A stretch of 64,000 nt of DNA from assembly GCF_057098645.1 (NCBI RefSeq), contig NZ_CM169472.1; one strand, 5' to 3'. Shown one piece after another: positions 42,001-57,000 of the stretch. Position 1 is the stretch's first letter; each line of letters starts with the position of its first letter. A program made the position numbers.

Positions 42001-45000
42001 TCGGCAGCACTTTGTGGAACACGTGAGCGATACCTACCGCCAGCGTCGGCGCACCACCTGCACGGTTCAGGACAGAAGGCTCACCAATGTCTTTCGCGGT
42101 TTGCAGGATCTGCTCTGGCGAAATCACGAAGCCCCAGGAGCTGACGGTCGCTGCCGCGTGTGCGGTAACGTCTTTCAGCTGCGCCATGATGATCGGCGCG
42201 TTCTCGCCACCCATTTCATGCAGGTTAGGCATGGTGATGCCAAGGCCCGCAGGCGGGGTGTTCATCGCGAAGTAAAGACCTGGTTCGATGATGGACGCAG
42301 CAACCAGCGCCATAATCGCCACGAAGGACTCCATCAGCATTGCGCCGTAGCCAATGAAACGCGCGTCGGTTTCGTTAGCCAGCAGTTTCGGCGTCGTACC
42401 GGAAGAGATCAGCGCGTGGAAGCCAGATACCGCACCACAGGCGATGGTGATGAACAGGAACGGGAACAGAGCGCCTTTCCACAGCGGGCCAGTACCGTCA
42501 ATGTACTGGGTCATCGCAGGCATTTTCAGTTCCGGGTTCAGCACCACGATACCCAGCGCCAGGCCGACGATAACGCCGATTTTCAGGAAGGTTGCCAGAT
42601 AGTCGCGCGGTGCGAGGATCAGCCACACCGGCAGCAATGCGGAAACAAACGCATAGCCAATCAGCGCGAAGGTAATGGTGGTGTCTTTAAAGGTCAGTGC
42701 CGGACCCCAGTACGGATCGTGAGCAATCACGCCACCGAAGTAGATAGAGGCAACCAGCAGCACGATACCAATAACAGAGACTTCACCCACACGCCCCGGA
42801 CGGATAAAGCGCATGTAGATACCCATAAACAGCGCAATCGGTACGGTTGAGCAAACGGTGAAGACACCCCACGGACTTTCGGCCAGGGCTTTAACCACAA
42901 TCAGCGCCAGAACGGCGAGGATGATGATCATGATTAAGAAACAGCCAAACAGCGCGATAGTCCCCGGTACTGGTCCCATCTCTTCTTTGATCATCTCACC
43001 GAGAGACGCGCCGTTACGGCGAGAGGAGATAAACAGCACCATAAAGTCCTGAACCGCACCGGCCAGCACGACCCCCGCCAGCAGCCACAGCGTGCCAGGC
43101 AGGTAGCCCATCTGTGCGGCGAGAACCGGACCGACCAGCGGACCAGCACCGGCGATAGCGGCGAAGTGGTGACCAAACAACACGTAACGGTTGGTCGGAA
43201 CGTAGTTCAGACCGTCGTTGTTAATAACCGCAGGCGTCGCGCGCGTGGGGTCGAGTTTCATCACCTTCTGGGCGATATACAAACTGTAGTAGCGATACGC
43301 CACCAGATACACCGACACAGAGGCGACCACGATCCACAGGGCGCTGACGTGCTCCCCCCGACGTAATGCAACTACCGCGAGGCAGAATGCACCGATGATT
43401 CCGAGAATCACCCAGGGTATGTGCTTGAATAGTTTTTTCGTATCCATAGTAAAACCTGGCATTTTACTCGTCGTCTTTTGGCTTACAGGTGCGGCAGCTG
43501 CGTTCGTTCACCCCTGTCACTTACTGTTGTAAGCTCCCGGTGATTCACTCACTTGCTGCCTTCCTGCAAACCAAAATCCATAGAGTAATTTGTTAATCAT
43601 AGGCCGAAGCCGTTCTAGGTTTGCGTTGCGTTTGAGGAGGTAAATTGACCGCTATCCTGCAGTGATGTTGCCAGAGATACGCGCGCGTAAAGTAAGGTAA
43701 ATAACTGAGTGGTTATTTTAGGGATGTAAGCGGTCAGGAATGGCGGTGAGCGGTTGGGCAAGAATTATTCATCGGGTGGATATGTGATTGAGATCACAAT
43801 AAAAATGCCCCTTCGACGAATACGTGAAGGGGCTGGAGCTTAAATCGCAGCTTCCATTTCCAGCATCACCGGATGGAAACGGCGTTTAAAGTAGATAAGT
43901 CCGTGACCTTCTGCACTGAGGATGATGTTTTTAATCTCCACCAGATACACCAGATGTGTGCCAATTGCCTGCACATCGCGGATCTCACCTTCAAGACTGG
44001 CCAGCGAACCTTTTAGCACCGGCTGCGCCAGCGGACCTTTTTGCCAGCATGAGAGGCTAAAACGCTCTTCCATCGCCATGCCTGTCATGCCCGCGAAGTG
44101 GCGTGCCATCAGTTCCTGCTCATGGTTGAGGACGTTGACGCACAACTTGCCGTTGCCCTGAAAAACCGGGTTCATCGCACTGTTGGCGTTAATGCACACC
44201 ATCAGCGATGGTGGTGTATCAGTGACCGAGCAGACGGCCGTTGCCGTAATCCCGCATTGTCCGGCGTCGCCCTCGGTGGTGATAATATTTACCGCTGCCG
44301 ACAGGCTGGCCATCGCGTCACGAAAGCGCAGGCGTTGTTCATCTAATTGCATCTTAACCTCCTGCTGCGTTATTTCAGCAGCTTATCCAGCATGTTGATA
44401 TCGTCGTTGTTGTGCAGGTGCGGCACAGTCCAGCCGTTCTGGTCGTATTCCGACAGGCAGCGATCAACCATCGCCATCATCTTGTCCATATTGCCGGAGC
44501 TTTGTGCCTGGCGCAGACACTGCAGGCGAATCTCATCCTGGCTACCGGAGTAGTTGATTTCATACAGTTCGTGACGACCACCAAATTCGCTGCCAATAGC
44601 ATCCCACATCAGTTTGAGGATCTTGATGCGCTGGACGTGATCCATACCGTTCGAACCGCGCACATACTTCGCCAGATACTGGTTGATCTGCGGGTTATTC
44701 AGGTCACGGGCACTGGAAGGGAGGTAGATCAGGCCACTGGTAACGTTGCGTTCGATAATGTTTTTGATCTTCGCGTAGGCCATTGGTGCCAGTACGCGAT
44801 AGGTTTGCAGTGCGGCATGATCCGGTAAATAAGCCCCGTTGACCCACGGCGTCGCTTCTGAACACATCGAGTCACTTAATGCCCAGAAGGTGTTGCGCCA
44901 CGCTACCACTTCACCGAGATCGGCCTGCACACCACGGAACTCCAGGGTGCCGGTACATTCGAGTGATTTTTTCAGCAGTGCCGTGATGAAGTCGAGTTTC

Positions 45001-54000: not shown

Positions 54001-57000
54001 TCTTCCGGCAGGCTGACGTCGTTAGCCAGCGCATATCCGGCGATGTACTCTGCCGCATCTTCTTCACGTACTTTCGTCGCCGTTTTTCCCACAATCAGCG
54101 CAACTGTCGCACCGCTCAGTACCTTTTCACCCTGTGGAAAGGGAATCGGTTCACCGCAACCAATCACCGTATTGCGCGGTTTAATAAACCAGACCGCAGT
54201 TTTAGGCGGGGCTTTGTAGGGGGATTGCTGGAACGCTTCCTGCCAGGCATAAAGTTGGCTGCGATGGTTCAATGCTACGGCGAAGATAGTGCCTTTCATT
54301 ACCACTCCTCGGATTCGATCATCTTGATCATTAATATGTTAATGATTGCTTTTATTCCCGATTGCGTAGTTTGGCAAAAGTAAGTGATATAAATGTGATC
54401 TAATTAACAAACTATTTACATTTAAAGATAATAAAATATTAAATATCAGTAAGTTAATAAAATATCATCAATTTTGATAAAATCAGGAATTGCGAGGACA
54501 GCTCAGTCCCGGTAACGTGACGATTAACTGTTTCTATATTAATGATTTTGAATTTTTCAGGGGAAAGATAATGCACGACTCACTAACTATTGCGTTGCTC
54601 CAGGCGCGAGAAGCGGCGATGAGTTATTTTCGCCCAATCGTTAAACGGCATAATTTGACTGAGCAACAGTGGCGCATCGTGCGTATTCTGGCGGAAAGCC
54701 CATCAATGGATTTTCACGATCTGGCGTATCGCGCCTGCATTTTGCGCCCAAGCCTGACCGGGATCCTCACGCGGATGGAACGCGACGGTTTAGTGTTGCG
54801 ATTAAAGCCGATCAATGATCAGCGGAAGCTCTATATCTCGCTAACCAAAGAGGGGCAGGCGCTGTATAACCGCGCCCAGACACAGATTGAAGAAGCCTAT
54901 CGGCAGATTGAAGCTCAGTTTACTGCCGAGAAAATGCAACAGTTAACCCATCTGTTAGAGGAATTTATTGCTCTGGGCAATTCCCGACAAGAAGACATCC
55001 CGGGCGATAATGAATAACTTTTTAGTATCTGATAACCAGCGCCTGGTTTTTCCATGGATGGCGGGTTACACCTTTTCATAAAGTTTTTGCTTTCCAGGCC
55101 GAAAATCTTGCATCGGTCCACAGGAAAGAGAAACCATGTTAAAACGTATCAAGATCGTGACCAGCTTACTGCTGGTTTTGGCCGTTTTTGGCCTTTTACA
55201 ACTGACATCAGGCGGTCTGTTCTTTAATGCCTTAAAGAATGACAAAGAAAATTTCACTGTTTTACAAACCATTCGCCAGCAGCAATCCACGCTGAATGGC
55301 AGCTGGGTCGCGTTGTTGCAGACGCGTAACACCCTCAACCGCGCGGGTATCCGCTACATGATGGATCAGAATAATATTGGTAGCGGTTCAACCGTTGCTG
55401 AGCTGATGCAGAGTGCCAGTATTTCGCTGAAACAGGCGGAAAAAAACTGGGCGGATTACGAAGCGTTGCCGCGTGACCCGCGTCAGAGCACCGCCGCAGC
55501 GGCAGAGATCAAACGTAATTACGATATTTATCACAATGCGCTGGCGGAGCTGATCCAACTGTTAGGTGCAGGCAAAATCAACGAGTTCTTTGATCAGCCA
55601 ACCCAGGGATATCAGGACGGTTTCGAGAAGCAGTATGTGGCTTACATGGAGCAAAACGATCGGCTCTATGATATCGCCGTCAGCGATAACAATGCCTCCT
55701 ACAGCCAGGCGATGTGGATTCTGGTGGGCGTGATGATCGTCGTACTGGCGGTCATCTTCGCCGTCTGGTTCGGTATTAAAGCCTCGCTGGTAGCGCCAAT
55801 GAATCGTCTGATTGACAGCATTCGTCATATTGCAGGCGGCGATCTGGTGAAACCAATTGAGGTGGATGGCTCTAATGAGATGGGGCAACTGGCAGAGAGT
55901 TTGCGCCATATGCAGGGAGAGCTGATGCGTACCGTCGGTGATGTGCGCAACGGGGCCAATGCCATTTATAGCGGTGCCAGCGAAATCGCCACCGGCAATA
56001 ACGATCTCTCTTCGCGCACCGAGCAACAGGCCGCTTCGCTGGAAGAGACGGCAGCCAGCATGGAGCAACTGACCGCAACGGTGAAACAGAACGCCGAGAA
56101 TGCGCGCCAGGCCAGCCACCTGGCGTTAAGTGCTTCTGAAACGGCGCAACGCGGCGGCAAAGTGGTAGATAACGTGGTGCAGACTATGCGTGATATCTCC
56201 ACCAGTTCGCAGAAAATCGCCGATATTATCAGCGTAATTGACGGCATTGCCTTCCAGACCAATATTCTGGCTTTGAACGCGGCGGTTGAAGCAGCGCGTG
56301 CGGGTGAGCAAGGACGTGGTTTTGCGGTGGTTGCGGGAGAAGTGCGTAATCTGGCCCAGCGTAGCGCTCAGGCGGCTCGTGAAATTAAAAGCCTGATTGA
56401 AGACTCGGTGGGGAAAGTGGATGTTGGCTCTACGCTGGTCGAAAGCGCCGGGGAAACAATGGCGGAGATTGTCAGTGCCGTGACCCGCGTGACGGACATT
56501 ATGGGCGAAATAGCTTCTGCTTCTGATGAGCAGAGCCGTGGTATCGATCAGGTTGGCTTAGCGGTTGCTGAGATGGACCGGGTAACTCAACAGAACGCCG
56601 CGCTGGTGGAAGAATCTGCCGCCGCCGCCGCCGCGCTGGAAGAGCAGGCCAGTCGCCTGACCGAAGCTGTGGCAGTGTTCCGGATTCAGCAACAGCAGCA
56701 ACAGCAGCGTGAAACATCGGCTGTGGTAAAAACCGTGACGCCAGCTGCGCTGCGTAAAATGGCCGTGGCAGATAGCGGGGAGAACTGGGAAACGTTTTAA
56801 CGCAATGACGCCGGATGAGTATTTCATCCGGCGTTTTTATTATTAAACCAGGAACAGTGAAATCGCCGGGATATATGTCACCAGCATTAGCATTAATAGT
56901 AGAGCCGCCAGTAGAGGCAGGGATTGTTTAAAGAAATTTCCCACCGAAACTTGCGTGATGTTACATACCAGCAGCATCACGGTACCTACCGGTGGCGTGA

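Follow-up and report, generated by a model that had tools for sequence, protein, structure and literature searches.

The hpa gene cluster between btsT and tsr in an O145:H28-like Escherichia coli strain: intact, apparently functional and most likely a resident locus that K-12 has lost

The window analysed here (64,000 nucleotides of contig NZ_CM169472.1, RefSeq assembly GCF_057098645.1) very probably carries the canonical E. coli catabolic cluster for 4-hydroxyphenylacetate (4-HPA), apparently functional and located at an ancestral site whose polymorphism most likely arose through loss. Eleven intact open reading frames span exactly positions 43840-55017, with btsT on the hpaC side and tsr on the hpaR side (in brackets: NCBIfam family, profile score and equivalog cutoff in bits):

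41297-43447, minus strand: btsT (yjiY)
43840-44352, minus strand: hpaC, 170 aa, flavin reductase component of 4-HPA 3-monooxygenase (NF012030, 385.6, cutoff 315)
44370-45932, minus strand: hpaB, 520 aa, oxygenase component of 4-HPA 3-monooxygenase (TIGR02310, 1108.5, cutoff 885)
46183-47073, minus strand: hpaA, 296 aa, AraC/XylS-type activator of hpaBC (TIGR02297, 386.7, cutoff 274.65)
47083-48459, minus strand: hpaX, 458 aa, MFS 4-HPA permease (TIGR02332, 892.6, cutoff 615.4)
48634-49422, minus strand: hpaI, 262 aa, 4-hydroxy-2-oxoheptanedioate aldolase (TIGR02311, 433.8, cutoff 368.8)
49433-50236, minus strand: hpaH, 267 aa, 2-oxo-hept-4-ene-1,7-dioate hydratase (TIGR02312, 464.7, cutoff 351.5)
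50304-50684, minus strand: hpaF, 126 aa, 5-carboxymethyl-2-hydroxymuconate isomerase (NF011605, 264.6, cutoff 215; Pfam CHMI)
50694-51545, minus strand: hpaD, 283 aa, 3,4-dihydroxyphenylacetate 2,3-dioxygenase (TIGR02298, 549.6, cutoff 315.95)
51547-53013, minus strand: hpaE, 488 aa, 5-carboxymethyl-2-hydroxymuconate semialdehyde dehydrogenase (TIGR02299, 739.3, cutoff 638.35)
53010-54299, minus strand: hpaG, 429 aa, bifunctional isomerase/decarboxylase (NF011750, 968.6, cutoff 811)
54571-55017, plus strand: hpaR, 148 aa, MarR-family repressor of the meta-cleavage operon (TIGR02337, 201.1, cutoff 121.2)
55136-56800, plus strand: tsr

All eleven proteins exceeded the equivalog cutoffs in the profile search, and the RefSeq annotation of RM9872 (a strain ~99.95% identical) uses the same gene names. 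The original prediction of a complete eleven-gene 4-HPA cluster, organised as in E. coli W, was thus confirmed. Alignment to E. coli W (ATCC 9637/11105; NC_017635), which could have exposed frameshifts or missing genes, revealed none: each gene ends in a single terminal stop, none of the eleven has a premature stop or frameshift, and gene order, orientation and lengths are those of W, as are 11 of 12 spacer lengths. Ten genes share 96.7-99.4% of their nucleotides with W; HpaC, HpaH, HpaE and HpaR are identical to the W proteins, and HpaB differs at two residues. The surroundings (yjiR-yjiS-pac-yjiA-yjiX-btsT-hpa-tsr, including an ERIC element upstream of btsT) also agree, whereas downstream of tsr the window encodes a TRAP transporter and a Na+/H+ antiporter and W has lgoT. 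Gene content, intactness and synteny, like the polymorphism frequencies given below, were read directly from the genomes compared.

In the gut, 3-HPA and 4-HPA arise from the metabolism of tyrosine and polyphenols. Going by the literature on strains W and C, from which we infer the regulatory logic and enzymology, HpaX would import either compound, and the AraC-family protein HpaA would sense the substrate and switch on hpaBC. HpaBC would then hydroxylate the substrate to homoprotocatechuate; this product and 4-HPA would relieve the repression of hpaGEDFHI by the MarR-family protein HpaR, and meta-cleavage by HpaD, HpaE, HpaF, HpaG, HpaH and HpaI would end in pyruvate and succinic semialdehyde. 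Residue 379 of the window HpaB is Arg, the state that permits the use of 3-HPA besides 4-HPA (PMC7201708), and strains B, C and W grow on 4-HPA/3-HPA (PMC7180172, PMC7201708). Utilization of both compounds is predicted from the sequence for this O145:H28-like strain. The main practical value of the analysis lies in annotation, i.e., in this predicted 3-/4-HPA use and in a penicillin acylase predicted to be dead (see below).

The hpa cluster as such has been in the literature since the 1990s, with descriptions of its genes and regulation, of its linkage to pac and of the fact that K-12 lacks it. Many E. coli strains, though not K-12, can grow on 3-HPA and 4-HPA by means of it. The cluster of E. 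coli W (GenBank entry Z37980) was reportedly described by Prieto et al. in 1996. It is treated in PMC7180172 and PMC3032704, and the eleven-gene composition, the absence from K-12 and the hypothesis of loss (PMC7201708) are all found in the literature. The E. coli C hpc operon represents the same meta-cleavage pathway and gene family, and HpaF aligns over its full length with HpcD (PDB 1OTG).

As had been predicted, btsT and tsr are adjacent in K-12; in MG1655 the spacer between them measures 377 bp. Comparison with this spacer placed the boundaries of the hpa-specific DNA at ~43800 (alignment) and 55075 (BLAST), next to two elements:

43783-43798: CRP-consensus site (TGTGA-N6-TCACA) upstream of btsT, with which the sequence in common with the K-12 spacer ends on this side
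55075-55105, plus strand: right edge, with K-12 homology resuming at 55075

Just past the right edge lies a sigma-28-type tsr promoter (TAAAGTTT-N11-GCCGAAAA, 55079-55105), called with the sigma-28 consensus. The cluster occupies the stretch between this promoter and that of btsT, a position conserved across Enterobacteriaceae. Its GC content (54.3%) resembles that of btsT (56.2%) and tsr (54.2%). The tRNA and Rfam scans of the region gave no hits, no integrase or transposase is among the annotated genes, and no flanking direct repeats were detected. Hence, the marks of a genomic island (deviating composition, tRNA genes or repeats, mobility genes, an empty site in related genera) are lacking.

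The same arrangement, tsr-hpaR-hpaGEDFHI-hpaX-hpaA-hpaBC-btsT-yjiX-yjiA, is present in Enterobacter cloacae, E. asburiae, Lelliottia, Citrobacter sp. 18056 and Pseudocitrobacter (where a further ~3.4 kb separates tsr from hpaR). Klebsiella and Raoultella share the btsT side, and in Salmonella and Kluyvera neither btsT nor tsr is close to the cluster (in Salmonella, hpaBC adjoins hpaR). In other Enterobacteriaceae, hpa clusters with the same gene order and neighbours (tsr in several genera) show ~75-90% nucleotide identity; in the comparison with other genera, the cluster genes are ~80-88% and btsT, yjiX and yjiA 82-90% identical. The divergent Escherichia lineage L006 carries hpa at the equivalent place, with the same 118-bp hpaR-tsr spacing as here. 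This shared synteny and flank-like divergence, together with the normal GC content and the lack of a tRNA or mobility gene, make loss in K-12 the likelier explanation. The K-12 state most likely reflects the loss of an old resident locus rather than the absence of an inserted island, and the presence/absence polymorphism within E. coli was most likely created by loss. The term "island" with its "insertion boundaries", by which the original prediction implied acquisition at this site, is misleading. Speaking of a conserved locus lost in K-12 instead matters to all who use K-12 as the reference state.

The loss reading is weakened by the age and spread of the empty site. Among 5426 complete E. 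coli genomes, ~38% (2071) are hpa-positive and 2755 (~51%), including phylogroup B2, have the K-12-type empty site. Moreover, no similarity could be detected between the ~85-bp filler present there in K-12 and either the cluster or the outgroup loci, which makes the empty allele something other than a simple clean deletion. We rejected the K-12 spacer as a remnant of the cluster: only its CRP-like site aligns with the left end of the cluster (a score matched by 19 of 500 shuffles), its comparison with the right end of the cluster gives a shuffle-level score (263 of 500), and against the whole cluster it scores 24 versus a shuffled mean of 22.4, with nothing found in the outgroup loci. Alternatively, hpa could be a horizontally acquired island that entered the btsT-tsr interval in an ancestor of E. 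coli, with K-12 preserving the ancestral empty site. The clean and widespread empty site (B2 included) and its unrelated filler agree with that, as does the lack of other named Escherichia species representatives (including E. albertii, E. fergusonii and E. marmotae) among the best 80 HpaH loci, and lateral exchange inside the cluster does occur (see below). However, such an acquisition is unlikely, given that the cluster has these same neighbours in at least five further genera, that the cluster is as divergent as its flanks, that lineage L006 has it at the matching place, and that a compositional anomaly, tRNA, integrase, transposase and flanking direct repeat are all absent.

A resident locus need not have been inherited vertically in all its parts. 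The window hpaF is only 80.6% identical to the W/C allele at the nucleotide level, and 19 of 126 residues differ from W, with Pro-1 kept. Two hpaF alleles, ~19% apart and without intermediates, occur in 1084 and 987 genomes (~52:48 among the hpa-positive ones). The window carries the E. coli B allele (99.5% identity to the B derivative C41(DE3)), whereas HpcD of E. coli C (PDB 1OTG) belongs to the other, W-type allele. The divergent patch measures ~0.4 kb and has one of its edges inside a REP element. Furthermore, a 5.3-kb block from hpaI to hpaG is 90-100% identical to Pseudocitrobacter. It is a serious, if still tentative, possibility that an ancient syntenic hpa locus has a non-vertical internal history, comprising the hpaF patch and a 5.3-kb block exchanged with Pseudocitrobacter. 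Such a history could stem from gene conversion associated with REP elements or from the maintenance of a polymorphism in a catabolic enzyme. We found no description of the hpaF dimorphism or of the Pseudocitrobacter block in the searchable literature; both are small, clean examples of short-patch recombination within a metabolic operon.

REP elements are present at both internal junctions for which REP/BIME elements had been predicted, but only the first one harbours a BIME:

48507-48633: hpaX-hpaI spacer, three REP units in a BIME-like array, as read from the sequence
50254-50286: single degenerate REP in the hpaH-hpaF spacer (67 bp)

The units of the array lie at ~48507-48540 (direct), 48556-48589 (direct) and 48604-48633 (inverted). 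The last two are canonical by the REP consensus (an imperfect palindrome of ~35 bp) and form, as two inverted REPs with a 14-nt linker, the BIME at 48556-48633; the whole spacer is 96.6% identical to its W counterpart. In the hpaH-hpaF spacer, W possesses an inverted pair of REPs (a two-REP BIME in 110 bp), whereas the window has a single unit, inside which the similarity to W stops. The complete 37-nt degenerate REP consensus, three mismatches allowed, had no match in the window; the units were located instead by a shorter tail motif and by reading the sequence. The tail motif, CTTATCMGGCCTAC, occurs seven times in the window versus 0.01 expected, and in local BLAST the units also match REP loci elsewhere in the window and in W.

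Penicillin G acylase, an Ntn-hydrolase, is encoded close to the cluster:

37459-39999: pac, 3.8 kb from hpaC

An aromatic-acid scavenging neighbourhood of pac and hpa, as the original prediction proposed, had already been suggested for E. coli W. The distance of about 4 kb assumed for the window was correct, but an in-frame TAG at 39463-39465, overlooked in that prediction, turns codon 669 of 846 into an amber stop, which W lacks. The product covers positions 2-513 of 675 of Pfam PF01804, the remainder of the domain following the stop, and the full-length precursor of 846 aa with a complete beta subunit is not encoded. The window pac is probably non-functional, judging by this truncation. That the stop might be common to sequenced O145 strains was rejected by direct comparison, as RM9872, RM12761 and W all lack it (the comparison with RM12761 was ungapped and used only the sequence from 36100 onward, upstream of which the strains are out of register). 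According to the bit scores, the three best complete genomes have exactly one mismatch each in the 4.2-kb pac query.

Between 39463 and 54348, five SNPs are private to this strain, and four of them either fall within regulatory sequence or give rise to the pac stop codon. Those in regulatory spacers are at 45999, 54326 and 54348. The regulatory features around the cluster are:

43807-43833, minus strand: hpaBC intrinsic terminator, a hairpin with U-run
45933-46182, minus strand: hpaA-hpaB spacer, 250 bp as in W, presumed HpaA-activated hpaBC promoter (SNP 45999)
54300-54570: divergent hpaG/hpaR regulatory spacer, with a palindrome at 54325-54348 that has a TTAA-N4-TTAA core

The promoter role of the hpaA-hpaB spacer follows the literature summarised in PMC7180172, which also gives TTAA-N4-TTAA as the operator motif reported for HpaR. 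The palindrome upstream of hpaG, CAATCATTAA-CATA-TTAATGATCA in the window, is probably the HpaR operator. The SNPs at 54326 and 54348 reduce its perfect part from 10+10 to 8+8 bp and leave the core untouched, and the window hpaG/hpaR spacer has no exact match among the 5426 complete genomes. Conceivably, these operator and hpaBC promoter-region substitutions could render a structurally complete cluster mis-regulated or silent in this strain, a proposal to which the location of four of the five private SNPs in regulatory DNA or at the pac stop, the shortened palindrome and the uniqueness of the spacer lend some weight, and the nearby decay of pac could signal relaxed selection on aromatic scavenging; however, this is highly improbable, since all eleven coding sequences are intact with proteins near-identical to W, the operator core is unchanged, a weaker repressor site would raise expression rather than abolish it, and five SNPs over such a distance are ordinary between O145:H28 strains. 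The apparently functional cluster also retains its transcriptional end. A generic promoter/terminator scan yielded counts no higher than in shuffled sequences and did not pick up the hpaBC terminator, whose loop was too long for it; folded directly, the hairpin reaches -19.1 kcal/mol (z = -5.3) and is followed by AUUUUUAUU.

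The region between btsT and tsr carries a complete hpa cluster for the catabolism of 3- and 4-hydroxyphenylacetate (3-HPA, 4-HPA). The window is ~99.95% identical to chromosomes of E. coli O145:H28 (e.g., RM12761 and RM9872, the latter with 11 differing positions across the 30 kb compared), and no exact equal was found among the 5426 complete E. coli genomes searched. Eleven intact ORFs occupy 43840-55017, with ends exactly as in the original prediction, and all 11 Hpa proteins score above the curated NCBIfam equivalog cutoff of their own family, which confirms the completeness of the cluster.

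41297-43447, minus strand: btsT, left flank of the hpa cluster
43807-43833: strong hairpin followed by a U-run after hpaC, hpaBC terminator (-19.1 kcal/mol, z = -5.3)
within 43840-55017, minus strand: hpaC, hpaB, hpaA, hpaX, hpaI, hpaH, hpaF, hpaD, hpaE and hpaG, intact ORFs
within 43840-55017, plus strand: hpaR, intact ORF
54325-54348: palindrome with a TTAA-N4-TTAA core upstream of hpaG
55136-56800, plus strand: tsr, right flank of the hpa cluster

The organization is that of E. coli W, as had been predicted. On the W chromosome (NC_017635), the genes follow the same order (yjiR-yjiS-pac-yjiA-yjiX-btsT-hpaCBAXIHFDEG-hpaR-tsr), all 11 hpa genes are equal in length, ten of them share 96.7-99.4% nucleotide identity with 0-3 amino acid changes each, and 11 of the 12 spacers have equal lengths. 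The alignment with the W cluster, proposed as a check of the prediction, revealed no missing gene and only intact ORFs. In W, the 11-gene cluster includes hpaX and two operons: hpaBC, which HpaA activates, and hpaGEDFHI, which serves meta-cleavage and is under repression by HpaR, a regulator of the MarR type. Strains B, C and W can grow on 3-HPA and 4-HPA, and K-12 cannot (PMC7180172, PMC7201708, PMC3032704). As the literature thus describes this gene cluster, the hpa cluster of the window is an already known feature; its identification is correct, and only the history of recombination within it adds something mildly new.

Judging from the literature and the anatomy of the locus, the substrate would be imported by HpaX, HpaA would activate hpaBC, and HpaBC would form homoprotocatechuate; hpaGEDFHI would then be freed from HpaR repression, and the HpaDEFGHI enzymes would turn homoprotocatechuate into pyruvate and succinic semialdehyde. 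HpaB of the window carries Arg379, a residue that strains need in order to grow on 3-HPA in addition to 4-HPA (PMC7201708). For the palindrome upstream of hpaG, a role as the HpaR operator is likely, as TTAA-N4-TTAA is the reported HpaR core (PMC7180172). Two strain-private SNPs (54326 and 54348) are located at its outer positions and shorten the perfect arms from 10+10 to 8+8 bp, leaving the core untouched; a third one (45999) precedes the start codon of hpaB by 67 bp. An identical copy of the hpaG-hpaR spacer of the window was found in none of the 5426 complete genomes.

In K-12 MG1655, btsT and tsr are indeed neighbors, with 377 bp between them, and the window has ~11.3 kb where K-12 has ~85-133 bp. 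The boundaries relative to K-12 could be mapped. On the left, similarity ends at a shared CRP-consensus site TGTGA-N6-TCACA (43783-43798), directly next to the hpaBC terminator; on the right, it starts again at 55075, just ahead of the tsr promoter, which we take to be of the sigma-28 type. The cluster therefore fits exactly between two promoters. Its GC content (54.3%) resembles that of btsT (56.2%) and tsr (54.2%), and no tRNA, Rfam element, mobility gene or flanking repeat was found at the cluster. A synteny scan with HpaH (one genome per species, 80 best loci) revealed the arrangement tsr-hpaR-hpaGEDFHI-hpaX-hpaA-hpaBC-btsT-yjiX-yjiA also in Enterobacter cloacae, E. asburiae, E. sichuanensis, Lelliottia, Citrobacter sp. 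18056 and Pseudocitrobacter, and its btsT side is kept in Klebsiella and Raoultella. The cluster genes show ~80-88% identity to those genera, compared with 82-90% for btsT, yjiX and yjiA. In L006, a divergent Escherichia lineage labelled as E. coli (~95% identical), the hpaR-tsr spacing is 118 bp, as in the window. The designation of the cluster as an island thus needs correcting: normal GC content, missing island marks, shared synteny and flank-like divergence support the reading of hpa as a probably old resident locus that K-12 would have lost, a view held in PMC7201708.

Several observations are caveats to such a loss. No other named Escherichia species was among the 80 best HpaH loci. Of the 5426 genomes, 2755 have the K-12-type empty site, B2 strains included (at 97% identity), and for its AT-rich filler of ~85 bp (21512-21596 of L002, the K-12 btsT-tsr locus), no similarity could be detected to either the hpa cluster or the outgroup loci. 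Both states are therefore old within E. coli; hpa is present in 2019-2072 of the 5426 genomes, depending on the probe (~38%). Two of the ~2070 matches to hpaF and the hpaG-hpaR spacer are on records classed as plasmids.

REP/BIME elements had been predicted at two internal junctions.

~48507-48540: REP unit, direct, hpaX-hpaI spacer
48556-48589: REP unit, direct, hpaX-hpaI spacer
48604-48633: REP unit, inverted, hpaX-hpaI spacer
50254-50286: single degenerate REP, hpaH-hpaF spacer (67 bp)

The hpaX-hpaI spacer (174 bp) holds up well, since its three REP units, with a 14-nt linker between the second and third, form a BIME-like arrangement. The window contains 7 copies of the REP tail motif (0.01 expected by chance), and matches of the units to other REP loci were found as well. 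For hpaH-hpaF, the prediction holds only in part, with a single degenerate REP; the corresponding W spacer has 110 bp and two inverted REPs.

One edge of a divergent patch (~50279-50690), comprising hpaF and part of the hpaH-hpaF spacer, lies inside this REP. Here W and the window share only 80.6% nucleotide identity (19 of 126 residues differ), whereas the surroundings are 96-99% identical. The 2071 hpaF-positive genomes fall into 1084 with the window-type and 987 with the W-type allele, with no intermediates (90-95% identity) among them. The window-type allele is found in E. coli B, and B strains grow on 4-HPA (PMC7201708); the crystallized enzyme of E. coli C (1OTG) is W-type. The alleles differ in 41 synonymous-only and 19 amino acid-changing codons, and Pro-1 is kept in both. 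Both are equally far from other genera (~77%), and no close donor was found among 75 outgroup loci. We found no description of this dimorphism in the literature searched. Furthermore, a 5.3-kb block from hpaI to mid-hpaG (~48562-53868) is 90-100% identical to Pseudocitrobacter vendiensis (loci L005, L007 and L008 compared), with one 250-bp bin at 100%, whereas the rest of the cluster and the flanks reach only ~80-88%; this contrast indicates an exchange between genera inside the hpa operon. Pseudocitrobacter hpaF is W-type (93%).

The penicillin G acylase gene is close to hpaC (3.8 kb), as had been predicted.

37459-39999: pac, penicillin G acylase; stop at 39463-39465

It is 99% identical to the W gene and stands alone between yjiS and yjiA in both genomes (window region 36943-41033). 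K-12 has at this place the 16-kb immigration control region with yjiT, mcrBC, symE, hsdRMS and mrr (L002 1752-18866), and for W, the location of pac at the hsdRMS-mcrBC-mrr site of K-12 was already reported (PMC3032704). At least 80% of a pac-yjiA-btsT query is covered in about 1074 of the 5426 genomes. In the window, a C-to-T change at 39463 converts codon 669 of 846 from CAG to amber TAG; direct comparison showed that RM9872, RM12761 and W lack this change. According to their bit scores, each of the three top-ranking complete genomes has exactly one mismatch in a 4.2-kb query; for RM12761, it was directly confirmed that this mismatch is position 39463. The truncated product spans only 2-513 of the 675 positions of the Pfam amidase profile, the last quarter of the domain being gone, and the enzyme is therefore probably inactive, unless the base call is wrong. 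With the same reservation, the aromatic-acid scavenging neighborhood proposed for pac and hpa, an existing idea for W, stands here as proximity but fails functionally.

Immediately upstream of btsT is a 127-bp ERIC/IRU element (43463-43589), in which each of the two ERIC primer motifs is found with 3 mismatches; W has this element, but K-12 lacks it. Downstream of tsr, three genes for a TRAP transporter (56843-59619) and a Na+/H+ antiporter gene (60299-61951) are located where K-12 and W have lgoT, and the GC content falls to 39-43% around 59000-61000.
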